Shown here piece by piece: positions 1,929 to 63,608 of a stretch of 64,000 nt of DNA. Made by a program: the position numbers and the translations under genes. Positions within the stretch are counted from its first letter, which is position 1. Each line of letters opens with the position of its first letter. The stretch spans positions 37,239 through 101,238 of the forward strand of contig CAYNGY010000002.1 of the NCBI GenBank assembly GCA_964397195.1, given 5' to 3'. The notes under the pieces are model-generated. The model saw only the letters and a list, made by a program, of their open reading frames with translations. It did no database searches and was not told the DNA's origin. Source of the stretch: an uncultured Gammaproteobacteria bacterium. Lineage in GTDB: Bacteria; Patescibacteriota; Patescibacteriia; SBBC01; CAIJZX01.

Positions 1929-4900
1929 ATGCCGACTACCGCCTTGCGGACGCAGACGCGTCGCTACTTCACGGATATCGTCGACGCTGCGCCACTCCCG
2001 GATCTCATTGAGATTCAGAAGCGCAGTTACGACTGGTTTTTCCGGGAAGGTCTAAAAGAACTGTTCGAGGAGATCTCTCCGGTCAAGGACTTCATCGGTC
2101 GGGACCTGGAACTCTCATTTCTCGACTATTACCTGGACGAACCGAAGTTCGATGAGGTGACAGCCAAGAATAAGAACGTGACCTACGAAGCGGCATTACG
2201 GGTTCAAGTCCGCTTGGTCAACAAGAAAACTGGCGAAATTAAGGAACAAGAAATTTATCTTGGCGATTTTCCGTTGATGACCGATCGCGGAACGTTCATC
2301 ATTAACGGGATTGAACGCGTCGTCGTTAGCCAGTTGATTCGCTCAGCTGGTGTTTTTTTCACGGTCGAGAATATTCGGGGCCGCCGCTACTACGGGGCGA
2401 AGATTATTCCGAACCGTGGCGCCTGGCTTGAAATTGAAACCGATCCAAACGGTGTTCTGACCGTTAAAATTGATCGCAAACGGAAAGTGCCGATCTCGTC
2501 ATTCCTCCGCGCTTTCGGCTACGGTAGCGACCAGGAAATTTTCGATCTCTTTAAAGACAGCGATACCGGCCCGATTAAATATATCGAAGCGACGGTGGCG
2601 AAAGATGCGGCTAAGGACGAGGCCGAAGGGTTAAAAGAAGTCTACAAGCGTATCCGCCCGGGCGACCTGGCCACGATTGATAACGCTCGTGACTTGATCC
2701 ATAAAATGTTTTTCTCGTTTGATCGCTACGACTTCGGTCGCGTCGGTCGATACAAACTGAATATTCGGTTCGGTTTCGATCAGCCGAATACGAAAGAAAC
2801 CCGCGTCCTCCAGCGAGCGGACGTTGTTTCCATTGTCAAAGAAGTCATCCGGCTCAACAACACTCAGTCGCCGGAAGATGATATCGATCACCTCGGGAAC
2901 CGTCGCGTCCGGGCAATCGGCGAACTCGTCCAGAATAAGTTCCGTGTCGGTCTGGCCCGAATGGAGCGCATCATCAAGGATCGCATGTCGACCCTCGATA
3001 TTAATACCCTGACCCCGAACCAGCTGATTAACGCGCGGCCGGTCATTGGCGCCATCAAGGAGTTCTTTATGAGCTCCCAGTTGTCGCAATTCATGGACCA
3101 GAACAATCCGTTGGCGGAGCTTGAGCACAAACGCCGACTATCAGCGATGGGCCCGGGCGGCTTGTCACGTGAGCGCGCCGGATTTGAAGTTCGTGACGTG
3201 CACCGCACGCACTACGGCCGCATCTGTCCGATTGCGACCCCAGAAGGACCGAACATCGGTCTGGTCGGTCACTTAGCCTCGTATGCTCGGGTCAATGATT
3301 ACGGATTTATTGAAACGCCGTTCCGCAAGGTCGTTCATGATGTTCCGAATGATGGCCAGTCCGCCATTGGCGAAATTGCGCGTGAAGATCTCGGCGGTGT
3401 CGTCAAAGAAGGCGAGACCATCTCAGCCGCCCACGCCAAGCAGTTAAAGACCCTCGAACTCAAAACTATTGCGGTCAAACCGCGAGCGACGAAAGAAGTC
3501 GTCTACCTCGATGCCTTCACCGAAGAGCGTCACTGTACGTCGGCGGCGACGGTGCCAGTTGATGAAAAAGGATACTTCCTCGTCGAAACCGTTGAAGGTC
3601 GGCGTCATGGTGAGCCGACTATCTTCCCGGTCGTAGAAATTGATTTCCTCGATGTATCCGCGAAACAGATTGTTTCGATCGCGACGGCGCTCATTCCGTT
3701 CCTCGAACATGACGACGCGGTTCGCGCGTTGATGGGCACAAACATGCAACGCCAAGCGGTCTGCTGCATTAAGCCACAAGCGCCGATTGTCGGGACGGGT
3801 GTTGAAGAGCGCGCAGCGAAAGACTCCGGACAGGTCGTCCTCGCCCAGAAGGCGGGAACGGTCATGCGGTCGCAAGCAAGCGAAATTCAGATTCAGGAAG
3901 AGGACGGTAACATTCGTATCTACCCGTTGCGAAACTTCTTCCGTTCAAACGCCTCAACCTCGATTAACCAAAAAGCCGCGGTGGTGCCGGGACAGAAAGT
4001 CGCGCAAGGCGACCTCTTGGCCGACGGTGCAGCTACGGAAAACGGCGAACTCGCCCTTGGTCAGAACTTGGTGGTGGCCTTCATTGCTTGGGAGGGCGGT
4101 AACTACGAAGACGCCATCCTGATTTCGGAGCGCGTCGTCCAAGACGATCGTTACACCTCCATCCACATTGAAGATTACGTCATCGATGTCCGCGATACGA
4201 AGCTTGGTGCGGAAGTCGTGACCCGTGACATCCCGAATATTTCCGAGGACAAACTGAAAGACCTTGATGAAGAGGGCGTCGTCCGAATCGGTGCCGAAGT
4301 TTCTTCCGGTGATATCCTCGTCGGGAAAATCACCCCGAAAGGTGAAACAGAGTTGTCGGCGGAAGAAAAGTTACTCCGCGCGATCTTCGGTGAAAAAGCC
4401 AAGGACGTGAAAGACTCGTCGCTGTACCTCGAGCACGGTGAGCACGGCAAGGTTGTTGATATTAAAGTCTTCTCCCGCGAGAAGGGCGATAAATTGCCGG
4501 CCGGCGTGATTAAGCAGATTCAGGTCTCGGTTGCCCAGCTCCGCAAAATCCAAGTTGGTGACAAGATGGCCGGACGTCACGGGAACAAAGGCGTGATCTC
4601 GCGAATCGTGGCGGTTGAAGATATGCCGTATCTCGAAGATGGAACACCGGTTGATATTGTCTTGAACCCGCTCGGTATTGCGTCACGTATGAACCTTGGG
4701 CAGGTGCTCGAAGTTCATCTCGGCATTGCCGCCAAGCGCCTTGGGTTCAAAGTCGCAACACCAGTCCTCGACGGGGTGGCGGAAAAGACGATTAAAGAAC
4801 TACTCGTCGAATCCGGCTTACCGGAAACCGGGAAGATGACGGTTATTAATGGCATGAGCGGCAAGCCGTTTGATATGCCTGTGACCGTTGGGGTGATGTA

Positions 4901-5349: not shown

Positions 5350-8300
5350 ATGCCATTCGAAGAACTCCACGCCGTCAATTTCAAAGCGATTAAACTCCGC
5401 GTTGCCTCCCCGGAAGATATTCACCGCTGGTCGTATGGTGAGGTGACCAAACCGGAAACTATTAACTACCGCACGCAAAAACCGGAAAAATCCGGGCTCT
5501 TTGCCGAAGAAATCTTCGGACCGTCAAAGGACTGGGAATGTTTCTGTGGGAAGTACAAGCGCATCCGTTACAAGGGGATTATCTGTGATAAGTGCGGTGT
5601 CGAAGTCACTCGCTCGGTTGTTCGCCGTGAACGCATGGGCCACATCGACCTCTCGGCGCCGGTCTCACATATCTGGTTCCTGCGTGGCGTTCCGTCCAAG
5701 ATCGGCTTAATGCTCGATCTCGGGGTGCAAGATCTTGAAAAAGTCATCTACTTTGCCAATTTCATTATCACCCGAGTTGATGATGGCCTGCGCGAAGAAA
5801 CTCTGCACCAGCTGAATTCAGAATACGAAGCGAAGAAGAAGCAGATTGAGAATGAAGCGCATCAGAAATCGAACACCCTGAAGCAACAGGTTGGTTCAGC
5901 GACAGACGAGCAGAAGACCGCGATTGAACAGGAACTGACGAATGTCGCGACGATTAAGCAGGAACAGCTCGATCGTCTCGATCAAGCGGTCGAAAGCGCG
6001 CGAGGCGAATTGAAGAGCCTAGCGCCGATGCAGATTCTGACTGAGCAGGCGTATCAAGACCTATCCCTCAAGTACGGCCATGTCTTTGAAGCCTCGATTG
6101 GTGCGGAAGCGGTCCGACATCTCCTCGAAAAAATCGATCTCGACACGGTGATTGCCGATCTGGAAGAAGAGATTACCGAAGCGACTGAGGCGAAACAACG
6201 CCGTCTCATTCGCCGTCTGCGCTTGGCCAAGAACCTCAAGCAGAACAATATCCGACCGGAATGGATGATTCTAACCGCGGTGCCGATTATCCCGCCGGAC
6301 TTGCGACCGATGGTCCAACTCGACGGTGGGCGATTTGCGACGTCGGATTTGAATGATCTCTACCGCCGGGTGATCAACCGCAATAATCGCTTAAAGCGGT
6401 TACTCGAATTGAATGCGCCGGAAGTGATTACGCGCAACGAAAAGCGCATGCTCCAAGAGGCGGTTGACGCCTTGATCGACAACGGTGCGCGTCACGGAAA
6501 AACCGTGACGGCTTCGACCGGTCAGAAACGTATGCTGCGTTCGATCGCGGATATGTTGAAAGGGAAGCAGGGTCGGTTCCGGCAAAACTTGCTTGGGAAG
6601 CGCGTCGACTACTCCGGACGTTCCGTAATCGTCATTGGTCCATACTTGAAGCTCGACCAATGTGGTTTACCGAAACGGATGGCTCTCGAGCTTTTCCGAC
6701 CGTTCGTCATCTCACACTTGATTAAGCGAGAACTCGTCCACAACGTCCGCTCAGCCGGCCGATATATCGAAGCCGGTCATGCCGAAGTTTGGGATATTCT
6801 TGAAGAGGTGACGAAGACCGCGACGGTCTTCCTCAACCGCGCTCCAACCCTGCACCGCCTCGGTATCCAGTCGTTCCGACCGATCCTGATTGAAGGAAAG
6901 GCGATTCAGGTTCACCCGTTGGTCTGTACGGCGTTCAACGCAGACTTCGACGGTGACCAAATGGCCGTCCACGTCCCGTTGACGGAACAGGCGAAGTGGG
7001 AATCGGAGAACTTGATGATGTCGACGAAGAACCTGTTGAAACCGGCGACTGGTCAGCCGATCGTGACCCCGAACATGGACATTGTTCTCGGCTGTTACTA
7101 CATGACCCAAATTGGACCCGGCAAGCCGTTCGTCTTTACTGATCCGGAAGAAGCGGTCTTAGCCTATGAAGCCGGACACATCGGCATTCAAACCGCGGTC
7201 AAAGTCCGCATCGGTGATGAAACGCATGAAACGACCGTTGGGCGCGTGCTCTTCAATCGGATTGTGCCGACTGAATTCGGGTATTTGAACGAGAGCATGG
7301 ACAAGAAAGGGCTGGCGGCACTGGTGTCCCGAACGCTGACGGAGCTCGGGTCGGATCGGACCGTTTCCTTCCTCGACGATTTGAAGAACTTCGGGTTCAA
7401 GTACGTCACCCAGTCCGGAATTTCATGGGGGAGCAGTGACCTTGAGGTCCCGGCCATTAAACCAGCGGTTCTGAAAGCGGCAGAAGAAAAGGTCCTCGAG
7501 ATCCAAGCGGCCTACGATAGCGGTCTCTTAACCGATCTGGAACGACGCGCTCGAGTTGTGGCCGTCTGGTCGACCGCAAAAGATGAAATTCAATCAGCAT
7601 CGAAGGAATTGCTCGACCCGCTCGGTCCGGTCTACATGATGATTAACTCCGGCGCTCGTGGTTCATGGGCCCAAACGACCCAGATGATGGGTATGAAGGG
7701 GCTCGTGATTAACCCGGCCGGTCAGGTCATTGAATTGCCCGTCAAGGCAAGCTTCAAAGAAGGATTGAACGTTCTCGAATACTTCGTTTCGACTCACGGT
7801 ACCCGCAAAGGTCTGACTGACACCGCCTTGAAGACCGCGTCAGCCGGGTACCTAACTCGTCGTCTCGTTGATGTTTCGCAGGATATTGTGGTCAACATTG
7901 AAGATTGTGGCGACGATCAAGGCTTCGTCATCACCAAAGACGAGAGCGAGGCCATGGGCGTTGAGATCGCGGATCGCATCGTCGGTCGGACACTCGTCAA
8001 AGACCTCGTTGATCAGAAGGGCAAAGTGCTCTTCACGGCCGGCACGCTCGTCACACCACGTGATGGAAAGGCGATTCGTGCGGCGGATGTCGTCGAAGCA
8101 ACTATTCGTTCCCTCCTGACCTGCCAAGCACCACGCGGCGTCTGCCAGAAGTGCTACGGGTATGATCTCGGGAAAAACGAGCCGGTTCGTCCGGGGACTG
8201 CGGTCGGTATTATCGCCGCGCAATCAATCGGTGAGCCGGGTACCCAGTTGACCATGAAGACGTTCCACATGGGTGGCGCGGCGTCAGCGGCCGACATTAC

Positions 8301-11680: not shown

Positions 11681-12348
11681 TGTTCACCAAGCGTCCGCTC
11701 GCGGGCCAGGAAACGCTCGGTGATCGGTTGCGGCAATTGCGTGAAGAGCGACGGGCGACCCTCGAAGAGGCGTCGAAGGCGGTGATTGTGCCGGCCAAAT
11801 ATCTTGATGCGCTTGAACGAAGCGCGTATACCGAACTGCCGGGCCTCGTCTACGCCCGGAACTTTGTGCGGCAATACGCGACGTGGTTGAGCTTGCCGGT
11901 GGAAACGGCGATGGAAAAGTTTGAGCAAGAATTTCAGGTTGTGCACGGTCGGCGTGTCGAATCACCGCGACTTGTGGCGCGAGCTAAAACCGAGTTTCCG
12001 TGGTATCTGCGTCATGGACGCTTCCTGATCGCTTCGGGGATTATCTTGATCGTCCTCACCTATCTTGTGATTCAGGCGGTACGCTTATTGCGTCCGCCGT
12101 TTATGGAGGTACTTCAGCCATCGACCGATATTTCCATTTCGGAAAACTCGATCGTGGTCAGCGGCCGTACTCAGCCCGGCGTTGAGGTCCGGATTAACAA
12201 CCAACAGACGGATGTCGCGGCGGATGGGACGTTCGTCGAAACGGTTGACCTGCAAACCGGGTTGAATACCCTAAAGATAACCGGACAGCGAAAAATTAGT
12301 AAGCCGGCCGTCGTGGAACGACGGGTGTTGGTGGAGGCGAAGGAATAA
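11677..12348 (+). CDS. RodZ-like protein (N-terminal XRE-type HTH, one TM helix, C-terminal beta domain)
   Basis: HTH segment LGDRLRQLREERRATLEEASKAVIVPAKYLDALERSAY resembles the RodZ N-terminus. A single TM helix (FLIASGIILIVLTYLVIQAV) follows. ATGA overlap with the ftsK stop. Confidence 0.5.
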   Translation: MMFTKRPLAGQETLGDRLRQLREERRATLEEASKAVIVPAKYLDALERSAYTELPGLVYARNFVRQYATWLSLPVETAMEKFEQEFQVVHGRRVESPRLVARAKTEFPWYLRHGRFLIASGIILIVLTYLVIQAVRLLRPPFMEVLQPSTDISISENSIVVSGRTQPGVEVRINNQQTDVAADGTFVETVDLQTGLNTLKITGQRKISKPAVVERRVLVEAKE

Positions 12349-12559
12349 CCACGCGGGGGAAGTGGCTGGACAGCCAACCGTTTACTGTATCATGTGAAAC
12401 TGAAAAAACGCTGAAAAATCCCGTTTCTTCGCTACGTTGAGCGGTTTTTTTGTAAAGCAAAAACCCCAGACCAGATGCCACCATCGCTTGCGCGACGATG
12501 GAATTGGTCCAGGGTATTGCCTGTATCTTTTACGATCCCCGGGGGGAGGGACGGTGCGG

Positions 12560-13078
12560 TTACTTGGTTCTGCTCTGGGCGAGGGGCCCAGGAAGGACGA
12601 CGTTCTCGAAGACGATGGATCGGCCGATGACCTTGCCGACAGGGGCACCTGGTCGACGGCAGTAGACGAGATCGTAGGAGTCGTCTGCGTGTCCGTTGAT
12701 GAAGATGCCGAAGCGGTCGCCGGCGTAGTTCATGTACGGCCTGGCCATCGGGTAGAGGACTTCATCGCGAATCGGCGTCTCGTCCATCAGGCGGACGTTC
12801 GGCCAGCGCGCGGCGTACTTCTTCAGGAAGTAGTCGTCGCCCGGCGAGCCGTAGGACGGCACGGTGCCGTCGATGAACGGGGTGATGGTCGCCGGCAGGG
12901 TGCCGTGCTTGAGCTGGTACTCGGTGATCTCCAGTGCGAGCTCGGTGACCGCCAGATTCTGCTGGCTTACCTCGAACTGGTGACGCAGGTTGGCGACCTC
13001 GATGTTCTGACTGCGGAACTGGGTTCCGATCCAGATCAGACCGAGGACCGCGAGAATGTAGAGAGCGACGATCTTCAT
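12560..13078 (-). CDS. hypothetical signal-anchored or secreted protein (172 aa)
   Basis: N-terminal hydrophobic segment MKIVALYILAVLGLIWIG. SD GGAGGA lies 3-4 nt upstream of the ATG. The overlapping plus-strand ORF 12437-13135 is D/E/R/G-rich antisense noise. Confidence 0.6.
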   Translation of the reverse strand: MKIVALYILAVLGLIWIGTQFRSQNIEVANLRHQFEVSQQNLAVTELALEITEYQLKHGTLPATITPFIDGTVPSYGSPGDDYFLKKYAARWPNVRLMDETPIRDEVLYPMARPYMNYAGDRFGIFINGHADDSYDLVYCRRPGAPVGKVIGRSIVFENVVLPGPLAQSRTK

Positions 13079-13393: not shown

Positions 13394-14095
13394 CTACTTC
13401 TGGCGGTAGACGAACCAGACCTCGTCCTTCCCGTTGATGGTGAAGACCGCCATCGTGACGTTGTCGATCTGGGTGCCGTGCTCGATGAGCCAGTGGTCCA
13501 GGTCGCCGGCGTTCTGGAAGACCTTCGCTCTGTAGCCTGGCTCCTCGCCCGGCTTGGGTGGAGGCTGGTAGCCCTGTTCCAGGCAAGGCACGATCACGGT
13601 TCGGGCCAGCGTCGCCGGGTCATCGGACTTGGAATTCGTCCGGATGGTAGCCGGTGGCGCGTAGCGGACGCGGTTCACGGGCACGTCGCCGCCGAACTGG
13701 TACTCCTGCAGGCGCTCCCATGATTCTGCGACCGCGCTCAGGGCCTTCCAGGTCGACGTGTAGCGAGTGCCGATGTTGGAAGACTCCTTGGCGTTCAGAC
13801 CCTTCCAGACGACAGCCAGACACGGGTTGGTGGTGTCACTGCCAGCGGCCGGAAACACGAACAGGTTGTAGCGCAGGTCTCTGGTCCCCAGGGCACCGCG
13901 GTAAGGAGCGGGCTGGAGGGTAGCATACCCGTACAGGCGGAAGGCCCGCCGGTGACCGAGCGCGTTGACGACGGTGACGTTGAAGCCCTCGATTCGGGAC
14001 TTGTAGTACCCGTCGATGGCGCCCTGGCTCGGCGTGGTGATGACACCGAGTGCCATGACCACGATCAGCAGGGTGATGCCGATGCTTGATTTCAT
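13394..14095 (-). CDS. hypothetical secreted protein (233 aa) with N-terminal signal peptide
   Basis: Signal-peptide-like N-terminus MKSSIGITLLIVVMALGVITTPSQGA. SD context GGAGGAATCATGAA is identical to that of the 12560-13078 gene. Its start overlaps the stop of the upstream receiver gene (ATGA). Confidence 0.65.
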   Translation of the reverse strand: MKSSIGITLLIVVMALGVITTPSQGAIDGYYKSRIEGFNVTVVNALGHRRAFRLYGYATLQPAPYRGALGTRDLRYNLFVFPAAGSDTTNPCLAVVWKGLNAKESSNIGTRYTSTWKALSAVAESWERLQEYQFGGDVPVNRVRYAPPATIRTNSKSDDPATLARTVIVPCLEQGYQPPPKPGEEPGYRAKVFQNAGDLDHWLIEHGTQIDNVTMAVFTINGKDEVWFVYRQK

Positions 14096-14481
14096 GATTC
14101 CTCCGGGTTGAGGAGCTCCGTCACCTGCGCGATCAGTTCGCGCGGGCTGAAGGGCTTCGCCATGAAGCGGTGGGCGCCGGCCGCGCAGTACGATCGTCCG
14201 TCAACGTCCGAAGGCTCGGGCGTGGTCAGGACGATAACCTTGATATGCCGGAACGCGGCCCAGGCGACCGTTGCGGTGAGTAGCTCGGGTCCGTTGCCGC
14301 GGTTGAGACGCGGGTCGATGATGATGACGTCGGGCGACGTGCGCTTCAGCTCGATCAGCGGGTTACTTGACCGGCTGATGATGACGACTTCGAAGCCTTG
14401 GTGGCGACTCAGTCGGTAGTCGAGCAGATCCGCATGCTTCGGATCATCGTCGATGACGGTGATACGTCGTTTGTTAGTCAT
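14092..14481 (-). CDS. stand-alone response-regulator receiver (CheY-like REC domain)
   Basis: Starting at MTNKRRITVIDDD (ATG at 14481, SD GGAGGG) it has all REC hallmarks: the DDD acid pocket, phospho-acceptor Asp in VIIIDPRL, Thr in VIVLTT and Lys in AKPF. There is no output domain. The track ORF extends to 14571, but the upstream extension lacks an SD. Confidence 0.75.
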   Translation of the reverse strand: MTNKRRITVIDDDPKHADLLDYRLSRHQGFEVVIISRSSNPLIELKRTSPDVIIIDPRLNRGNGPELLTATVAWAAFRHIKVIVLTTPEPSDVDGRSYCAAGAHRFMAKPFSPRELIAQVTELLNPEES

Positions 14482-57780: not shown

Positions 57781-59895
57781 ATGGCCGCCCAGCGACTTTC
57801 ACGGTACGCCGCACTTCTGACGGTGGCCGTGGTCTTGGGCGGGTTGCTGAATCAGTGGTGGCGTCATGACGCGACCGCTGATTTCAGTGGGGCACCAGCG
57901 GCCTTGGCCCAGACGCGGGCGCCGCTCGCCGTCGATACGATTCCGTTTCCACACAGCTTTTTGTACAGCGGGATAAATAGCTCCGGGTGGCCATACGTGG
58001 GGAATCTCGGTACGACCGGTGTCTGCTCGAGTGGTGGCGCGGCCTGTGCGTTTAGCTCAGATTGTACCGGGTATACACAGTCATGTGCCAATCCGAGCTA
58101 TCCGTCACCGCTGGCGAGCCCAATCAATCAGGCGGTGATCGCGGCCGCCTCGCGCTATCAATTTATGTCGGTCCCGCCGACGCCGACGATTGATATCCGG
58201 CCGGATATCTACACCGCAATTCGTCAGGCGAACCCGAATCAGTACTTGCTGGCGTATACTATGGGGAGCACGACCTGGTGTCCGTATGCAGACGCTGGCC
58301 ATTTGAATAGTTACCCGGTTGGATCATATTATCGTGGGTACTGGCTGGCGGCGACTGGCGGCGATCCGAGTTGTGACTACCAGGGCGATCGTCTGCTATG
58401 GGCGCAAGATGGGACAGCGCCCAGTGCTGCGATGGTGAATGTGAATATTGCCAAGCGTCTTGGTGATGAGGTCAATGGCTACACCTACCCGGTGGCGGAC
58501 GCGGTGGCGGAGAATATTTTCACATTCGGCATCGCTAATCAGAAATTCGATGGGGTTTTCGTCGATGTGATGTGCGACAATATCGGTTGGATGGAATCCG
58601 GTGGATTCGCGTTCGATTATGCGCGGGCCGGGTACACCGCCGGGAATGGACACACGGCGCGTGAGAACTTCCTGAGCGGCTGGAAGGCTGGTCATACCGA
58701 GCTAGCACGAAAGCTCCGTGAATTGGCGACCGCCGCCGGTTACCCAGATTTTGCCATTTACGGAAACTGCAACCCGGGGCCGGTAGCGACGTATCCGTAT
58801 CTGAATGGGTGGATGCGGGAAGGATTTCCCTATCAGGATGGCGGAGACTGGTTTACGAATATGTACAGTGAACCGGGCGGGATGTTTATGGAAGCGTATC
58901 GGTATCGTAGCCCGCAACAAAACTTTGTCTTTACGCCGGCCGATCCGTACTGGCAACCGGTGAGTATGAGCAACCAACGGAAGATGCGTTTCGGATTGGG
59001 GACCGCGTCGTTAGCGAATAGCATGTCGGCGTTTCATGAGAGCTCGGGCGGCGCGACGATCTCGCCAAACTACAATTTTTGGTATGACGAATATGGGGTG
59101 AATGTGATTACCGGCCAGGCCGACGCGACCAAGACCGGTTGGCTGGGAATGCCGAAAGGTCCGGCGTATCAGGTGATAAACCCAAATACGAATGCAAATC
59201 TGGTCCCGGTCTCTGGATTTGAAACCGGGATGGATAATTGGTCGTTGTCGGTCAGCGGGTCGGCGGCGGCGACCGTCACCCGCGAGGTCGGGTCGGCGGC
59301 CGATGGCGGCACAGCGGTGCATGTCGCGGCGAGTCAAGTGATGCCATATGATTACTCGGTGAATTTTACGCATAGTAGCGCGTTCACCATAACCGCAAAC
59401 CAGGAATATAGCGTGACCTTCTGGGCGAAGGCGGATCATCAGCGAACGATTACCGTCGCGTTCGATCGACCGGCGGCCGGTGGCTACGCGGCTCGTCATC
59501 AGCCGATTGATACGACGTGGCGGCGATACCAAGTGATGCTTAAGCCACTCGGTTCGCACGCTGATAGTAATATCTGGTTTAGCTTGGGCGCCGAGATCGG
59601 CGATGTCTGGCTCGATGATATTCGGGTACAGCCGGGGTTTACGAGTCTCTACCGCCGGGACTTTGATCACGGGACGGTCCTAGTTAATCCGGGCTTGCAA
59701 ACCCAAACCGTACAACTCGATAAACCGTATTATAAGATTTTGGGTACGATCAATCCGAGTTTGAATGACGGGTCGATGGTGTCACAAGTGACGGTGGCCG
59801 GAACATCGGGGAATGCGGGGATTGGTGATGCGCTCTTTCTGGTTGATATGGATAAAACGCCGCCGAGTAAAATCCAGGATCTTTCCGCTCAGTAG
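57781..59895 (+). CDS. hypothetical secreted protein (704 aa), W/Y/G-rich, possibly carbohydrate-active with a C-terminal beta-sandwich
   Basis: N-terminal signal/TM (LLTVAVVLGGLL). The aromatic-rich composition is typical of glycan-binding or glycan-processing proteins. No catalytic motif was assigned by eye. Confidence 0.55.
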   Translation: MAAQRLSRYAALLTVAVVLGGLLNQWWRHDATADFSGAPAALAQTRAPLAVDTIPFPHSFLYSGINSSGWPYVGNLGTTGVCSSGGAACAFSSDCTGYTQSCANPSYPSPLASPINQAVIAAASRYQFMSVPPTPTIDIRPDIYTAIRQANPNQYLLAYTMGSTTWCPYADAGHLNSYPVGSYYRGYWLAATGGDPSCDYQGDRLLWAQDGTAPSAAMVNVNIAKRLGDEVNGYTYPVADAVAENIFTFGIANQKFDGVFVDVMCDNIGWMESGGFAFDYARAGYTAGNGHTARENFLSGWKAGHTELARKLRELATAAGYPDFAIYGNCNPGPVATYPYLNGWMREGFPYQDGGDWFTNMYSEPGGMFMEAYRYRSPQQNFVFTPADPYWQPVSMSNQRKMRFGLGTASLANSMSAFHESSGGATISPNYNFWYDEYGVNVITGQADATKTGWLGMPKGPAYQVINPNTNANLVPVSGFETGMDNWSLSVSGSAAATVTREVGSAADGGTAVHVAASQVMPYDYSVNFTHSSAFTITANQEYSVTFWAKADHQRTITVAFDRPAAGGYAARHQPIDTTWRRYQVMLKPLGSHADSNIWFSLGAEIGDVWLDDIRVQPGFTSLYRRDFDHGTVLVNPGLQTQTVQLDKPYYKILGTINPSLNDGSMVSQVTVAGTSGNAGIGDALFLVDMDKTPPSKIQDLSAQ

Positions 59896-59897
59896 CG

Positions 59898-59926
59898 TTG
59901 ACGATTTTGTCCAAGTTCGGTATTCT
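59898..59926 (+). promoter_or_regulatory. putative promoter of tRNA-Ser (TTGACG-N17-TATTCT)
   Basis: -35 at 59898-59903 and -10 at 59921-59926. A 7-bp hairpin GCGCTTC-gcaa-GAAGCGC lies in the short leader before the tRNA 5' end. Confidence 0.5.
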
Positions 59927-59959
59927 GTCCGCGCTTCGCAAGAAGCGCTCAAGACGCGT

Positions 59960-60049
59960 GGAGGCGTGCTAGAGTGGTTGAATAGGCGTCCCTGGAAAGG
60001 ACGTATACCTGCAAAGGTATCGAGGGTTCGAATCCTTCCGCCTCCGCCA
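59960..60049 (+). tRNA. tRNA-Ser (anticodon GGA), class II with long variable arm, CCA encoded
   Basis: GGAGGCG acceptor, D-arm CTA/TAG, anticodon stem CGTCC/GGACG with loop CTGGAAA (GGA), variable arm TATACC-tgcaaa-GGTATC, T-arm GAGGG-TTCGAAT-CCTTC, 3' CGCCTCC-G-CCA. The antisense ORF 59949-60188 translates the typical AEAEGFEP artefact. Confidence 0.85.
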
Positions 60050-60167
60050 ACGAGTCACGCGAGTTGGCGAAACGTGTGCCGCATGGCACACGAATGAGTC
60101 CAACGGATTCGAAGGGCGAGCACTTCTGCCAGTGGCAGGAGAGCGCAAGCCCCGGCCCCGTAGGGGC

Positions 60168-60188
60168 GAATCCTTCCGCCTCCGCCAC
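60168..60188 (+). repeat. 21-nt direct repeat of the tRNA-Ser 3' end (CGAATCCTTCCGCCTCCGCCA), i.e. a partial pseudo-tRNA or att-like duplication
   Basis: Identical 21-mer at 60029-60049 (inside the tRNA) and 60168-60188. The upstream part of the second copy has a degenerate T-loop (GGCGAAT rather than TTCGAAT) and no matching 5' acceptor strand. Confidence 0.5.
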
Positions 60189-60391
60189 CGGTCATTGCGC
60201 CCTGCGGACTCCGCGTGAGCGCTGTGTCGCTCCCGCGCCGTCCATAGGGCGTGTGCCTCTTTTCCCCAAAACGGCAAAGCCGTTTCGGGGGCCCCACTGG
60301 AAGAATGCTCGGATGATGGCGACATACGTCTTCGAAAAAAGAACTACATGTCGGGCGATCCGAGTGCCTAAGATGAAGTGCCAGAATACGT

Positions 60392-60958
60392 ATGGATCGA
60401 GAAGTTCATAACTGCGATACTATACAATCAAAACCGCTCTCCTTCTTTTTTCAAAAGGGGTCTAGCGTCCCAGGTAAGAAGGTCTTAGTGCTTGGTGAAT
60501 CTTTGGCAAGAAATGGCTGGATCGAGTCTGGACGGGCATTTTATAATTTGCAAGATACGTTGGTTCCAACGGGAAAACGATTGAATGAGGAGCTCTCGCT
60601 CATTAATGTGCACATTGAAGAATGTGCTTTTACAGAGATTGCTAAATGCTATCTTGGTAATAACCGTAAGAGATTAGCAGTGTGCGGGGCATTGTGCGCC
60701 GGACACCTTCTTGAACAAATACATTACTATAAACCAAAGGTCATTCTATCCCTAGGAGTAATCACGAAGGGTGTTTTGGAGTCAGCCCTTCACGCTACAC
60801 TGCAAATGGGTGAAATAAGCAACGTTAGCCACAGAAATAAAAGATACTCACTCCTGCCATTATTTCACCCATCACCAGCAAATCCATTTGGGCACGCAAA
60901 GAATATTGCTGTTATTAATTACTGCAAGGAGCGACTCCAAAGAATAATTTGGGCGTGA
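60392..60958 (+). CDS. uracil-DNA glycosylase superfamily-like protein (divergent), AT-rich gene
   Basis: VLVLGESLARNGWIESGRAF resembles UDG motif A (GE[AS]xG...G..F). LLPLFHPSPANPFGH resembles motif B (HPSP[LA]N). Codon usage is unlike the rest of the window. The start is uncertain, as the track ORF begins MDREVHN. Confidence 0.45.
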   Translation: MDREVHNCDTIQSKPLSFFFQKGSSVPGKKVLVLGESLARNGWIESGRAFYNLQDTLVPTGKRLNEELSLINVHIEECAFTEIAKCYLGNNRKRLAVCGALCAGHLLEQIHYYKPKVILSLGVITKGVLESALHATLQMGEISNVSHRNKRYSLLPLFHPSPANPFGHAKNIAVINYCKERLQRIIWA

Positions 60959-61225
60959 CCTGCGCCCCCCAAATTAGTCTCTAGAACAATCGTCAGAAAA
61001 GCCTCATACCACTTAGGTAGATAGGGCACCTACCTCATGTAGGTGTGGGATAAAGCAACCTACTATCATAAACAACGAAACTGAATTTTTGCTGAACCCC
61101 GCACCGTACGGTGCGGGGTGAACTAAAACTTCAGCTACCCTTGTGCAAAAAAAGACACCCGGGGCCAATGGCTCCCGGGCGTGGTACGTGGCGAGTGACG
61201 TTTCCGTGGGCGTCACGTGACGGTG

Positions 61226-61618
61226 CTATACCGGGGCGATCCGGTGGTGCTCGTACAGCAGGTCAGCGGTGCGCGTCGGGTCCGGGTGGCGAATAACCCA
61301 GATGGGCGTGCATTCCGCGTCAGGTTGGTGTCTCCACTCCGGCGGCATCGCGGCGAAGGCGAAGTACCGTTCCGTGGCTTGGCATTCGACGAGTCGCCAG
61401 ACGTGGTGTCCGCGTTCCTTGTCCATCCGCAGGATGGGCAGGACCTTACCGAGTCGGTCAGGCCGGTTCTTTGATGAACCTTTCCGAATCGGAGCGGGGT
61501 TGAGGATGATGGTGAGGTACGGTGACTTGGTCAGCTCCACGAGCAGGGAATAGAACTTCCCACTCCGCGGCAGCTTTTTTGGCACCACTTTTTCTTTGGT
61601 GCCGTTCTTGGTTGGCAT
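61226..61618 (-). CDS. hypothetical protein (about 130 aa)
   Basis: Protein-like composition on the minus strand, while the overlapping plus-strand ORFs are R-rich noise. Start chosen at MPTKNG (SD GGTAGGA), though the track ORF extends to 61696. A 12-bp palindrome CGTCACGTGACG lies just past its stop. Confidence 0.4.
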   Translation of the reverse strand: MPTKNGTKEKVVPKKLPRSGKFYSLLVELTKSPYLTIILNPAPIRKGSSKNRPDRLGKVLPILRMDKERGHHVWRLVECQATERYFAFAAMPPEWRHQPDAECTPIWVIRHPDPTRTADLLYEHHRIAPV

Positions 61619-61793
61619 TGATCCTACCCTCATCCGATGAGGGGGTAAGGTGTCCCGGGGGCGAATCCCGGGCGAGGACATGGCCATCGGCAGCACGGAC
61701 TGGCGATGGAATTGCTAGGGTACGCCTCTCTTGCGGTGGGTGTCAAGGCGGACAGAGTGGCGGTTTTTCCCATTTCTGGTAGGGTATAGACGC

Positions 61794-63608
61794 ATGGGTA
61801 CCCCTGTTGAAGACATTAAAGCGCGCCTCGATATTGTTGAGGTGATTAGCGAATATATTACGCTGAAGCCGGCCGGCTTGAGTTTCAAAGCGCGGTGCCC
61901 GTTCCATAACGAGAAGACGCCGTCGTTTATGGTCTCGCGAGATCGCGGATCGTGGCACTGCTTTGGTTGTCATCGCGGCGGCGATGTATTTTCGTTTGTG
62001 CAGGAAATGGAAGGACTCGACTTTCCGGAAGTCTTACGCGTCTTGGCGAAAAAGGCGGGGATTGAACTGAAGCCGGTGAACCCCGAGCTCCATACGCAGC
62101 GAACCCGCGCGATGGATGTCCTTCGGTGGGTGACGAAATATTATCAGGAAGTATTGCGGAAGAGCGCCGAAGCGAAGTCGGCGCGGGACTACCTGCAGAA
62201 GCGCGGTCTTGATGAGGAGACGATGGAAACGTTCGCGCTCGGGTACGCGCCGGATGATTGGGAGACGACCTATGCGGCATTACGCAAAAAGGGATTTTCT
62301 GACGAAGATATTTTTCTGGCGGGGATGACCGTTAAGAAAGAACGCAGCGTCGGATACATTGATCGATTCCGCGGCCGTGTTATGTTTCCGATTCGTGACG
62401 CCCAAGGATCGGTAGTGGGGTTTACCGGACGGATCTTGAACGAAGCGGCCGACGCGAAAGGTCGTGTGCCGGCGAAGTACGTCAATTCACCACAGACAGT
62501 GGTCTATAATAAGAGCGCGGTGCTGTATGGCTACGATCTCGCCAAGTCGTCAATCAAACAACTCGGGTACGCGGTCCTTGTTGAGGGGAATATGGATGTG
62601 ATTGCGTCACACCAGAGCGGGGTGACGAACTGCATTGCTGTTTCCGGGACGGCGCTGACCGAAGATCAGGTGCGGATTTTAAAACGGGTGACCAATCGAC
62701 TCGTCTTTTCTTTTGATCAGGATGCCGCAGGTATCCAAGCCGCCGCGCGAGCGCTCGATCAGGCATTTGCCGCCTCGATGGATATCGCCATCGCTCGTTT
62801 ACCGGACGCCAAAGATCCTGACGAGCTTATTCGCCGCGATCCGGCGGCCTGGCCGGTGGCGATTGCGGCCGCAGCACCGGCGATGGAATTTTTCTTCGCG
62901 ACAGCGACCGACGGAAAAGACCTCGGGGCGGTGACGACGAAAAAGGCGTTGACACGCGAGTTGCTTCCGATTATTTCAAAACTTGGCGATCCGGTTGAAC
63001 AGTCGCATTACCTTGAGAAATTGGCTGATGCGGTTCATGTTCGGGTTGATGAGCTTCGAACCGTGATTGGAAGGAAGCCGATGGATCGTCCGACAGTAGC
63101 AACGACCGCGCCGACCGTGCAAACCGCCCCGACGCCGTCAAAGGTTGATCATATCCGAGCAGTGTCTGAACGCCTGTTGGCGCTGTGTATAGCCGACCCT
63201 CGGCAGTTGGCGGTCGCGGTGGACCGGGTGGATCCGAGCCTACTCTCCGGTCATGACCTCGAGGACTTGTATCGGACCATGTTGATGTGGTATACTCAGG
63301 CCCACTTTGTGACCCGTCAGGAGCTCGATGCTCAGGCGGCTGCGTTGAAAGGGGACGCACAGAATCTCTATGCCCTCCTTTCGTTGCTGGCCGATAAGGA
63401 ATTTTCCCCTGACCACGAGACTCCAATAGCGGAGGAATTCCTCTCTTTGGCGGGCACACTTACGCGACACGCACTCGCTCGACGCCTGCAATCTTTAGAG
63501 GCGGATATTTCCCGCCTCGAGCGGACTGGTCAATCGGCTTCGGCTGAGATGACAGATCTGCTCAATCAAGCGCGAGAACTGACGGATCGACTCCGCAGTG
63601 CCGGGTGA
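61794..63608 (+). CDS. dnaG: DNA primase
   Basis: Start MGTPVEDIKARLDIVEVI. Zinc ribbon CPFHNEKTPSF...CFGCHRGGD, TOPRIM region (VLVEGNMDV...DQDAAG) and a C-terminal helical domain. Confidence 0.9.
   Translation: MGTPVEDIKARLDIVEVISEYITLKPAGLSFKARCPFHNEKTPSFMVSRDRGSWHCFGCHRGGDVFSFVQEMEGLDFPEVLRVLAKKAGIELKPVNPELHTQRTRAMDVLRWVTKYYQEVLRKSAEAKSARDYLQKRGLDEETMETFALGYAPDDWETTYAALRKKGFSDEDIFLAGMTVKKERSVGYIDRFRGRVMFPIRDAQGSVVGFTGRILNEAADAKGRVPAKYVNSPQTVVYNKSAVLYGYDLAKSSIKQLGYAVLVEGNMDVIASHQSGVTNCIAVSGTALTEDQVRILKRVTNRLVFSFDQDAAGIQAAARALDQAFAASMDIAIARLPDAKDPDELIRRDPAAWPVAIAAAAPAMEFFFATATDGKDLGAVTTKKALTRELLPIISKLGDPVEQSHYLEKLADAVHVRVDELRTVIGRKPMDRPTVATTAPTVQTAPTPSKVDHIRAVSERLLALCIADPRQLAVAVDRVDPSLLSGHDLEDLYRTMLMWYTQAHFVTRQELDAQAAALKGDAQNLYALLSLLADKEFSPDHETPIAEEFLSLAGTLTRHALARRLQSLEADISRLERTGQSASAEMTDLLNQARELTDRLRSAG

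Follow-up and report, generated by a model that had tools for sequence, protein, structure and literature searches.

A repeated tRNA-Ser(GGA) 3′ end and an adjacent AT-rich islet with a putative family-4-like uracil-DNA glycosylase gene in a Patescibacteria genome

An intact tRNA-Ser(GGA) gene, an exact repeat of its 3′ end and an AT-rich islet lie close together in the sequence studied here, a 64-kb stretch (the window) of a Patescibacteria (candidate phyla radiation, CPR) genome with a mean GC content of 54.9%. The islet carries one gene, which probably encodes a divergent family-4-like uracil-DNA glycosylase (UDG). The locus as a whole is an ordinary tRNA-associated hot spot that combines a decayed scar with a small acquired islet, and as such belongs to a known kind; what goes beyond the routine is the uncharacterised UDG subfamily and its strong association with tRNA-Ser genes in many Patescibacteria and some Firmicutes, without a visible recombinase. 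The proteins nearest to the DnaG of the window are metagenomic (74%, 70%, then 56–59% identity), the identity to DnaG of Candidatus Kerfeldbacteria is 53%, and, judged by sequence, the host lineage is Kerfeldbacteria-like Patescibacteria.

For comparison, 123 loci were fetched and designated by L-numbers; L001 is a contig with the same genes as the window, and a contig with these genes is contained in the metagenomic run SRR12487045. Three syntenic relatives, L116, L118 and L119, have in common with the window the frame of ppsA, tRNA-Ser(GGA), dnaG and rpoD. Their DnaG proteins are 74% (L116, the closest syntenic relative), 56% (L118) and 53% (L119) identical to that of the window, and the GC content of all three loci lies within 50–57%. 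L007 is a distant CPR locus, and L002 is the locus with the closest UDG homologue. The main features of the window at this locus are the following:

59960–60049, plus strand: tRNA-Ser(GGA), intact, with an encoded CCA (ARAGORN; Rfam RF00005, 52.7 bits)
60029–60049, plus strand: copy 1 of the direct repeat, made up of the final 21 tRNA nucleotides (T-loop through CCA)
60050–60166, plus strand: GC-rich, hairpin-rich 117-nt spacer without an open reading frame (ORF), which together with one repeat copy makes up the presumed 138-bp insertion
60167–60187, plus strand: copy 2 of the direct repeat (exact, 21/21), attR-like, the presumed displaced ancestral 3′ end of the tRNA
60188–60263, plus strand: putative native tRNA trailer, then a terminator-like hairpin (60234–60253) and a T-run (comparison with L116; terminator scan)
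60297–61135, no strand assigned: AT-rich islet, 44.2% GC (delimited by composition; no counterpart in L116, L118 and L119)
60392–60958, plus strand: putative divergent family-4-like UDG gene, intact, 188 aa (Pfam PF03167)
61029–61047, plus strand: small hairpin CACCTAC-ctcat-GTAGGTG in the 3′ non-coding part of the islet
61081–61134, no strand assigned: long imperfect palindrome at the islet's right edge, built around the core GCACCGTACGGTGC, its 27-nt arms 81% complementary
61143–61185, minus strand: hairpin CCCGGGAGCC-att-GGCCCCGGG followed by a minus-strand T-run (read from the sequence)

The final 21 nt of the tRNA gene, CGAATCCTTCCGCCTCCGCCA, occur exactly twice within the 64 kb, at 60029–60049 and at 60167–60187, with a copy-to-copy period of 138 bp. 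No third copy is present in the 64 kb even at three mismatches, and 0.01 matches would be expected by chance with up to three mismatches allowed. A previous reading of this DNA from the sequence alone (below, the sequence-only reading) had pointed to the exact duplication, which stands at 21 of 21 positions; it had placed the second copy at 60168–60188 behind a spacer of 118 nt, which is off by one, the spacer being 117 nt long. All the palindromes and hairpins that it quoted are present, among them GTGTGCC-gcat-GGCACAC at 60074–60091, within the spacer, CTGCC-agt-GGCAG, and the hairpin CCCCGCACCG-ta-CGGTGCGGGG at 61097–61118. The GC content of 59960–60296 is 63.5%. The second copy does not belong to an RNA gene of its own: ARAGORN called neither a tmRNA nor a second tRNA there, no other RNA family of Rfam matched above noise in 59500–61600, and a tmRNA, a pseudo-tRNA or a known RNA in 60050–60190 was ruled out, ARAGORN and Rfam (E ≤ 1) being empty.

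The same layout of tRNA, spacer and repeat is found in L116, where it occurs without any UDG gene. There, tRNA-Ser(GGA) at 7985–8070 is followed by a spacer of ~113 nt and again by the final 29 nt of the tRNA at 8185–8213, with a period of 143 bp. The tRNAs of the window and of L116 differ, and each distal copy agrees with the tRNA of its own genome. The 24 nt after copy 2 (60188–60211) match the 24 nt after the distal copy of L116 (8216–8239) at 14 of 24 positions in register, a level reached by only 0.1% of all L116 positions (empirical p ~0.001); the 24 nt directly after the two tRNAs match at 5 of 24 positions in register, which is the chance level. Because the trailer is conserved after copy 2, copy 2 and this trailer are taken as the ancestral end of the tRNA gene, and the 138 bp to the left as inserted. 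Excision of the 138 bp would leave the tRNA joined straight to CCGGTCATTGCGCC. The proposal of the sequence-only reading that the duplicated end is an integration scar is upheld, in that the scar is a real one of the attachment-site (att) type; site-specific recombination would be its presumed source.

Other origins of the repeated segment were considered and rejected. No homologue or second copy of the spacer was found in the window or in any of the 123 loci, which speaks against a multi-copy miniature inverted-repeat transposable element (MITE). A simple tandem duplication does not fit, the 117-nt spacer being unlike the tRNA or the region upstream of the tRNA. Homology of the spacers or flanks of the window and L116 was not supported by local alignment, which was not significant; only the in-register trailer comparison was.

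The AT-rich islet lies outside the repeat pair, beyond the terminator-like hairpin and T-run (60234–60263). Its borders are approximate: the left one falls between 60264 and 60297, and the right one within or just past the long hairpin. The islet has 44.2% GC versus 55.0% in the rest of the window, and in a sliding-window analysis 60297–61096 was the lowest-GC segment of 800 nt (43.4%, with a mean of 54.9% and a standard deviation of 3.0%; the runner-up had 47.9%). The earlier statement that this is the only clearly AT-rich DNA in the window holds at this scale but not at 300–500 nt, where a second low-GC patch appears at 1358–1857 (44% over 500 nt); it is the non-coding region upstream of rpoB and not an islet.

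The composition of the UDG gene is equally deviant, with 42.5% GC and 39.7% GC at third codon positions (GC3) against a GC3 of 58.8–63.5% in ppsA, the gene of a 704-aa protein and dnaG. Because the loci of the syntenic relatives have 50–57% GC, a long-resident gene should have drifted to the host composition. The gene is absent from L116, L118 and L119, all of which keep ppsA, tRNA-Ser(GGA) and dnaG–rpoD, and the islet is accordingly no conserved core sequence in these relatives. The nearest UDG homologue (72% identity at the amino acid level; 81% over 261 nt and 91% over 46 nt at the nucleotide level) lies in a locus with 43.5% GC. Between the window and L007, the UDG proteins are 56–60% identical, compared with 50.5% for YchF, 49% for SSB, 38.6% for EF-P, 35.8% for DnaG and 28.8% for S6; between the window and L011, UDG shows 57% and EF-P 44% identity. 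On these sequence comparisons the UDG gene is horizontally acquired, one gain being more parsimonious than three losses, and the AT-rich segment can be retained as the acquired single-gene islet that had been proposed, given its absence in three relatives and its odd composition.

At the right edge of the islet, the 14-mer GCACCGTACGGTGC forms the core of the long palindrome. It has a single occurrence in the window and two in L002, directly after the tRNA-Ser 3′ end and after a 3′ fragment; non-coding flanks common to the window and L002 were otherwise rejected, this 14-nt palindrome being all that they share. The hairpin at 61143–61185 was missed by the consensus terminator scan, its T-run beginning 4 nt past the stem; it is probably the terminator of a small minus-strand ORF, at which native DNA resumes. 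On the right side of the islet, a search for a third att copy gave nothing at up to three mismatches, and local alignment there was no better than with shuffled sequences. No integrase remains at the locus, as the sequence-only reading had held: Pfam gave no integrase match in the UDG ORF, in the ORFs 60064–60411, 61217–61474, 61226–61696 and 61269–61553, in the 704-aa protein or in DnaG, and there was none in the precomputed Pfam hits around the locus on L001.

The 64 kb contain just two GC-rich hairpins that combine a perfect stem of 5 bp or longer with a GTA or GTAC loop; one, at 60155–60167, abuts copy 2, and the other, at 61096–61119, lies at the islet's right edge. Hairpins with such loops were also seen in L002 (5781–5804 and 7916–7935), L087 (1259–1275) and L118 (7517–7529 and 8412–8428), and most of those in these three loci are near tRNA-Ser or fragments of it. 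A function as tRNA terminators or as recombination sites is conceivable. Another candidate junction motif, the mini-hairpin GCGAAGC, was rejected, being widespread in GC-rich genomes and not specific to the junctions.

The 188-aa product of the islet gene passes the Pfam cut-off for PF03167 (E = 5.4e-10; 39.9 bits versus 24.3), in line with the single ORF with UDG-superfamily motifs reported earlier. Its motifs are GESLA (motif A), KCYLGNNRK (motif 3) and HPSPANP (motif B). There are 59 homologues, nearly all of ~187 aa, and the named ones come from Patescibacteria, Gracilibacteria, Magasanikbacteria and Clostridia; a scan of species-representative genomes yielded ~68 further distant copies (29–40% identity) in metagenome-assembled genomes of gut Clostridia and Bacilli. 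A metagenome scan with the single protein returned no homologue, a profile scan being needed for this. The family motifs can be written as GES(L/P)A.NGW..SG(R/K)AFY, FTE(I/C)(A/C)KC, NRK and HPSPANP. Residues C8, E36, C86, R92 and H159 are invariant family-wide; N91 and C98 are invariant in the close CPR subfamily, and C98 is at least 90% conserved in the whole family.

An AlphaFold2 model built from the family alignment (predicted local distance difference test score 93.8, predicted TM-score 0.90) was compared with known structures by Foldseek. The best matches were the family-4 UDGs of Sulfolobus (4zbx), Thermotoga (1l9g/1vk2) and Thermus (1ui0/1ui1), with UdgX next; TM-scores were 0.62–0.66 at 18–22% identity, with a probability of 1.00 to UDG structures. 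A profile search of PDB sequences gave the same order, with 4zbx first at E = 6e-16. N91 and H159 align with the Asn and His of Thermus UDGa (catalytic N89 and H155); in family 4 these residues are proposed to coordinate water and stabilise the leaving group (PMC5387724). The curated family-4 models are not reached, with scores of 37.7 versus 125.3 for TIGR00758 and 36.2 versus 250 for NF040953. Motif A of family 4 is GE(A/G)PG, and the present family departs from it, with GESLA in the window and GES(L/P)(A/G/P/S) across the family. In the CPR subfamily, the C-x-x-C of family 4 and of the Firmicutes members is replaced by H-x-C: C8, C86 and C98 remain conserved, C-x-x-C is without its second Cys, and an invariant His precedes C8 by two residues.

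Set beside family 4, as represented by the enzymes of Thermus (1ui0), Thermotoga (1l9g) and Sulfolobus (4zbx), the protein of the window is thus alike in fold, in the order of the motifs and in their conserved residues (Glu in motif A, Asn-Arg in motif 3, His in motif B), and keeps three of the four iron–sulphur (Fe-S) cysteines; it is unlike in its 18–22% identity, in the GES(L/P)A form of motif A and in the H-x-C of the CPR subfamily. No match to PADLOC or PHROG was obtained and no relatives were found on viral contigs, and a phage origin or a defence function was rejected for these reasons. The earlier suggestion of a DNA-repair or anti-restriction gene therefore survives in its first half, which the family-4 catalytic residues support, and fails in its second, the protein having no match to a phage or defence family. 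From its residues and predicted fold, the protein is intact and probably an active, divergent family-4-like glycosylase, and its role would most likely be base-excision repair. The subfamily is uncharacterised, well conserved and common in Patescibacteria and gut Clostridia and Bacilli, and it has an altered motif A and an altered set of putative Fe-S ligands.

The interval between tRNA-Ser(GGA) and dnaG differs in length and in cargo from genome to genome:

L116: 931 nt from the tRNA end to the dnaG start; no cargo
L118: 1349 nt; DUF3850/ASCH and TfoX_N genes
window: 1745 nt; UDG
L007: 3332 nt; 160-aa ORF, UDG, glyoxalase, YgjP-like, acyltransferase and DUF3850
L119: 5232 nt; ten genes

As both the distance and the cargo differ per genome, the interval is a flexible hot spot. 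The GC content of the cargo is below that of the flanks in the window (44.2 versus 55.0%), in L118 (43.3 versus 50.3%) and in L007 (39.9 versus 44.9%). A conserved hot spot of the flexible genome is thereby located in a phylum in which gene exchange is poorly known and few mobile elements have been described.

The association with tRNA-Ser extends to the close UDG subfamily. Of its 18 assessable loci (distinct loci with members at least 50% identical and with enough upstream sequence), 13 have a same-strand tRNA-Ser gene no more than 3.5 kb upstream of the UDG gene. The 18 loci are not independent phylogenetically, L011 and L120, for instance, having neighbouring genes in common, as do L095, L096 and L097. 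These are the 13 loci, with the anticodon and the distance from the tRNA to the UDG gene:

window: GGA, 343 nt
L002: TGA, 232 nt
L005: CGA, 2303 nt
L007: GGA, 605 nt
L011: CGA, 2548 nt
L087: CGA, 184 nt
L088: CGA, 947 nt
L092: TGA, 833 nt
L095: CGA, 780 nt
L097: CGA, 1092 nt
L120: CGA, 3430 nt
L121: CGA, 1732 nt
L122: TGA, 69 nt

The exceptions are L091, with a tRNA-Ser on the opposite strand, L093, L094 (tRNA-Asp), L099 (tRNA-Trp) and L123. With an estimated ~4 tRNA-Ser genes per genome of ~1 Mb, linkage by chance amounts to ~1% per locus. When L120–L123 were fetched later as a prospective test, three of the four agreed with the prediction of a tRNA-Ser. In a neighbour-joining tree of the UDG proteins, constructed without bootstrap, the GGA, TGA and CGA classes are interspersed; these anticodons differ only at the wobble base, and shifts of the anticodon may have occurred. 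The genes between tRNA and UDG vary and include DNA_alkylation (Pfam) and membrane proteins, or are lacking; by sequence, an HD-domain hydrolase and a dCTP-deaminase-like protein are apparent others. The position of the UDG gene behind tRNA-Ser is far above chance, and if this linkage reflects a mechanism, it is not among the described ones.

In L002, 33-nt direct repeats (88% identical) that contain a 3′ end like that of tRNA-Ser enclose the UDG gene, and one gene further on comes a weaker third copy; a 225-aa ORF of L011 is flanked in much the same way. In the Firmicutes branch of the family, the nearest upstream tRNA is a same-strand tRNA-Ser in nine loci (L022, L028, L034, L047, L057, L065, L067, L077 and L079) and another isotype in seven. 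Ten candidate ORFs of the Firmicutes tRNA-Ser–UDG loci were scanned for integrases and no recombinase was found; the Pfam matches were to CAT, APH, GIY-YIG, an exonuclease, a helix-turn-helix protein, a rhomboid protease and an S_4TM effector. CAT and APH are situated between tRNA and UDG, and GIY-YIG and the S_4TM effector just past UDG, all of them genes of the accessory type.

Fragments of tRNA genes were surveyed in 22 CPR loci by BLAST with all tRNA sequences as queries. On the plus strand, 3′ fragments of tRNA-Ser were found ~90–260 nt past the tRNA in the window, L002, L087, L092, L095, L097, L105, L116 and L119, and the survey gave one weak match only on the minus strand. For 18 non-Ser tRNAs of the same loci there was ~1 weak comparable case of a downstream fragment. 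The distal copy of L092 differs from its tRNA by two compensatory changes of T-stem pairs, which mark it as derived from another functional allele, as in an attL/attR pair. Besides, 5′ fragments of tRNA-Ser ending at nt 34–36, in the anticodon loop, occur in L087, L116, L002 and L119.

Several arrangements were examined as possible sources of these fragments and rejected. A nested tRNA within a tRNA intron does not agree with L002, in which the outer 5′ and 3′ fragments are of different tRNA types and lack nucleotides 35–41, leaving no functional outer tRNA. Copies derived by reverse transcription of mature tRNAs were dismissed, because CCA occurs in some displaced copies but not in others, without a pattern. 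A target-site duplication of fixed length, made by a transposase or casposase, is at odds with repeats that range from 14 to 29 nt or more.

Some of the related loci contain elaborate arrays. In L119, two nested pairs of tRNA-Ser fragments (the outer of type A, the inner of type B) surround the live tRNA-Ser(GGA) at 3558–3886; the outer pair is joined by a perfect 14-nt inverted repeat, CCCCGCACCAGAGC / GCTCTGGTGCGGGG, and the tRNA leader CCCGCCAGTGGC is the exact complement of GCCA plus the trailer. Next to it, at 3361–3565, a tRNA-Ser 5′ fragment of the window type (GGAGGCGTGC ... TAGAGTGGTGAATAGGCG) is broken by ~190 nt that are edged by perfect 20-nt inverted repeats, CTAGAACTCATTTCAAAACC / GGTTTTGAAATGAGTTCTAG, and that look like a MITE at CTAG. 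In L087, positions 1225–1840 hold tandem tRNA-Ser(CGA) units of nt 1–34, nt 1–73 and the full tRNA, 100% identical where shared, together with an 86-nt repeat (95% identical) that includes a hairpin-rich segment of ~66 nt in the T-loop, between GGGTTCG and CCCTCTCTC; the UDG start codon is 20 nt past the final tRNA-Ser 3′ fragment. In L002, a 5′ fragment of another allele, identical at 22 of 22 positions to tRNA-Ser(TGA) of L092, is located at 7631–7666, upstream of tRNA-Ser(TGA), and downstream of the tRNA, 7842–7917 comprises, in this order, a copy of tRNA nt 42–69, a hairpin of 29 nt inserted in the T-loop, and the 3′ end of yet another allele. In L116, tandem 5′ fragments of tRNA-Asn (nt 1–18 and 9–32, each twice, with a 147-nt period) occupy 12221–12490; as this array stands upstream of an intact tRNA-Asn (12515–12589), fragment arrays are not confined to tRNA-Ser.

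The neighbouring features of the window are as follows:

57781–59895, plus strand: 704-aa protein of secreted appearance, with a CBM_4_9 domain, encoded between ppsA and the tRNA
59898–59926, plus strand: sigma-70-like promoter match TTGACG-17-TATTCT, 34 nt before the tRNA (consensus scan, pattern only)
61226–61696, minus strand: small native ORF upstream of dnaG, without a Pfam or NCBIfam match (31% identity, E = 2e-8, to the L116 ORF at the same position)
61794–63608, plus strand: dnaG, the conserved right anchor of the variable interval, with rpoD next (Pfam; synteny with L116, L118, L119 and L007)

In the consensus scan, sigma-70-like promoter matches were as many as expected from shuffled sequences. 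The 704-aa protein is native, with a 36% identical homologue in the same place in L118 (a weak GHL15 match), and was lost in L116; since its gene is missing from L116, variability extends to the left side of the tRNA. On L001, the small minus-strand ORF was called at a length of 130 aa, i.e. 61226–61618, and L118 has an unrelated small minus-strand ORF in the same place. Downstream of rpoD, at 13953–14240 of L007, a tRNA-Asn not called by ARAGORN has its anticodon loop interrupted by a group I intron (13977–14187; Rfam RF00028, 68.8 bits, E = 2e-15); the syntenic tRNA-Asn genes of L116, L118 and L119 are free of introns.

On balance, we favour a history of two events in a flexible hot spot, with the att-type scar of a 138-bp element and the separate acquisition of the UDG islet. 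In the first event, a small element would have recombined with at least the final 21 nt of the tRNA gene, regenerating the tRNA and pushing the original 3′ end, the trailer and the terminator 138 bp downstream; its recombinase would since have been lost or would act from elsewhere in the genome. In the second event, ~840 bp of low-GC DNA would have arrived from a lower-GC Patescibacteria donor just past the old tRNA terminator, bringing one intact gene, the family-4-like UDG. Since the islet is situated beyond both repeat copies and past the old terminator, the event behind the repeat would not have brought it in. The link between repeat and islet implied by the sequence-only reading has to be given up for this reason; the trailer, the terminator-like hairpin and the layout of L116 also speak against it.

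Several observations weigh against this two-event history. The foreign origin of the spacer is suggested by one test, the in-register comparison of the trailers, which was post hoc and run after the similarity had been spotted by eye. No empty-site allele was found among the relatives: L116 has its own 143-bp equivalent, and L118 and L119 are arranged otherwise. The repeat lengths vary among the loci from 14 to 29 nt or more, and the 5′ fragments are not explained by simple integration at the 3′ end. No integrase or recombinase family was detected in 11 annotated loci, including L001 (precomputed Pfam hits for called genes), or in 17 ORFs scanned directly against Pfam (seven from the window and the ten Firmicutes candidates), and no direct repeats or mobility genes flank the islet in the window, which bears on its route of entry. 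Moreover, L120–L122 have the linkage of tRNA-Ser and UDG without any tRNA fragment.

Some of these points would be met better by tRNA-anchored recombination of imported Patescibacteria DNA, with the other end joined illegitimately and no site-specific recombinase involved. Such events, if repeated, would leave partial tRNA copies on both sides together with the DNA that followed tRNA-Ser in the donor, often a UDG gene. The absence of integrases everywhere would be better accounted for in this way, and so would the 5′ fragments ending at nt 34–36 and the nested foreign alleles (L119, L116 and L002). It would also explain the variable repeat lengths and the recurrence of UDG genes behind the UCN-reading isoacceptors (GGA, TGA and CGA), which are interspersed on the UDG tree; the TfoX_N gene in the same hot spot of L118 speaks for it too. 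However, an exchange of this kind should replace the native trailer, yet the trailer follows copy 2 and the islet comes after the terminator; exact identities of 21–29 nt with sharp edges are more like att cores, and direct evidence of competence or of such events is lacking. We regard this explanation, the chief rival as regards the mechanism, as doubtful. A single decayed island in the tRNA-Ser 3′ end, with the 21-nt repeat as the att core and UDG as the surviving cargo, is distinctly unlikely. The att type of the repeat would suit it, as would the UDG homologues of L002 and L087, which lie 83 and 20 nt after a tRNA-Ser 3′ fragment, and the direct repeats with a tRNA-3′-like end around the UDG of L002; but the islet of the window is outside the repeat pair, the native trailer and the terminator-like hairpin separate copy 2 from the AT-rich DNA, L116 has the repeat without the UDG gene, and the right side of the islet lacks a third copy. 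An integrase-less exchange of cassettes aimed at tRNA-Ser in Patescibacteria and some gut Firmicutes is an unlikely alternative. If it were true, single genes of ~0.8 kb would shuttle between the 3′ flanks of UCN-reading tRNA-Ser genes, with the new UDG subfamily as the main cargo besides other small genes, in cassettes that end in a tRNA-Ser-3′-like repeat (L002 and L011); they would move by a recombinase acting in trans or by an undescribed tRNA-anchored recombination, and the 138-bp insert and the UDG islet of the window would be two decayed products of the system.

Two further explanations do without integration or without acquisition. Copy 2 might form the 3′ terminus of a structured RNA transcribed together with tRNA-Ser, for instance a processing element or tRNA mimic, and be kept identical by selection. 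The spacer with copy 2 folds better than shuffled sequences (minimum free energy z = -3.25), the terminator-like site comes after copy 2 and not after the tRNA, and in both the window and L116 copy 2 agrees with its own tRNA although the tRNAs differ. Still, the equivalent region of L116 is no better than chance (z = -0.47), neither Rfam nor ARAGORN gave a call, the spacers have no detectable similarity and vary widely among loci in length and content, and L120–L122 have no such element, which makes a conserved RNA very improbable. Vertical inheritance of UDG beside tRNA-Ser(GGA)–dnaG, with loss in L116, L118 and L119 and with low GC as a property of the family, is hardly to be expected either. 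The order in L007 (tRNA-Ser(GGA), the 160-aa ORF, UDG, four genes, dnaG–rpoD) and a UDG GC content slightly below that of the host in most loci would fit it. Against this, three losses would be needed instead of one gain, a GC3 of 40% in a lineage that is all at 50–57% GC argues against long residence, the nearest homologue follows another isoacceptor, in a genome with 43.5% GC, and UDG is better conserved than YchF or EF-P between the same genomes.

Among known systems, the two-event history comes closest to att scars and cis-mobilizable elements (CIMEs). CIMEs are remnants flanked by att sites and devoid of integration genes (PMC5704250), and partial tRNA genes have been recognised as attR sites (PMC9897764). 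The 138-bp segment agrees with this description, having att-type sites and no integration gene. As in such scars, the window has an intact tRNA with an exact repeat of its 3′ end close downstream and lacks integration genes, and tandem or accreted arrangements are seen in the relatives L002 and L011. The differences are that the segment between the repeats has only 117 nt and no gene, that 5′ tRNA fragments also occur, and that the lineage is not known to have a parent integrative and conjugative element (ICE), integrative and mobilizable element (IME) or prophage, or a cognate integrase; no related autonomous element (ICE or IME) was present in any fetched locus.

In the genomic islands of Prochlorococcus, successive integrations next to the tRNA displace older elements towards the interior, with partial tRNAs left behind (10.1101/2020.12.28.424599). 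The present locus is like such tycheposon islands in its streamlined genome, the conserved tRNA-side island, the small cargo, the partial tRNAs and the inward position of older insertions. Unlike it, tycheposons carry a tyrosine recombinase and replication modules, none of which is in the Pfam listings of the annotated loci here; the host phylum and the cargo also differ, and the tie to the Ser isotype and to one cargo family is peculiar to this case.

The comparison with integron arrays concerns the relatives, the window being without such an array. IntI, an imperfect palindrome of the attC type and attI are absent, and the repeats are instead tRNA-Ser-3′-like. The likeness lies in the architecture of L002 and L011, with single-gene units of ~800 bp and terminal repeats of 33–61 nt in L002 and 45 nt in L011, and in the fact that the best-preserved repeat of L002 is the one nearest the tRNA.

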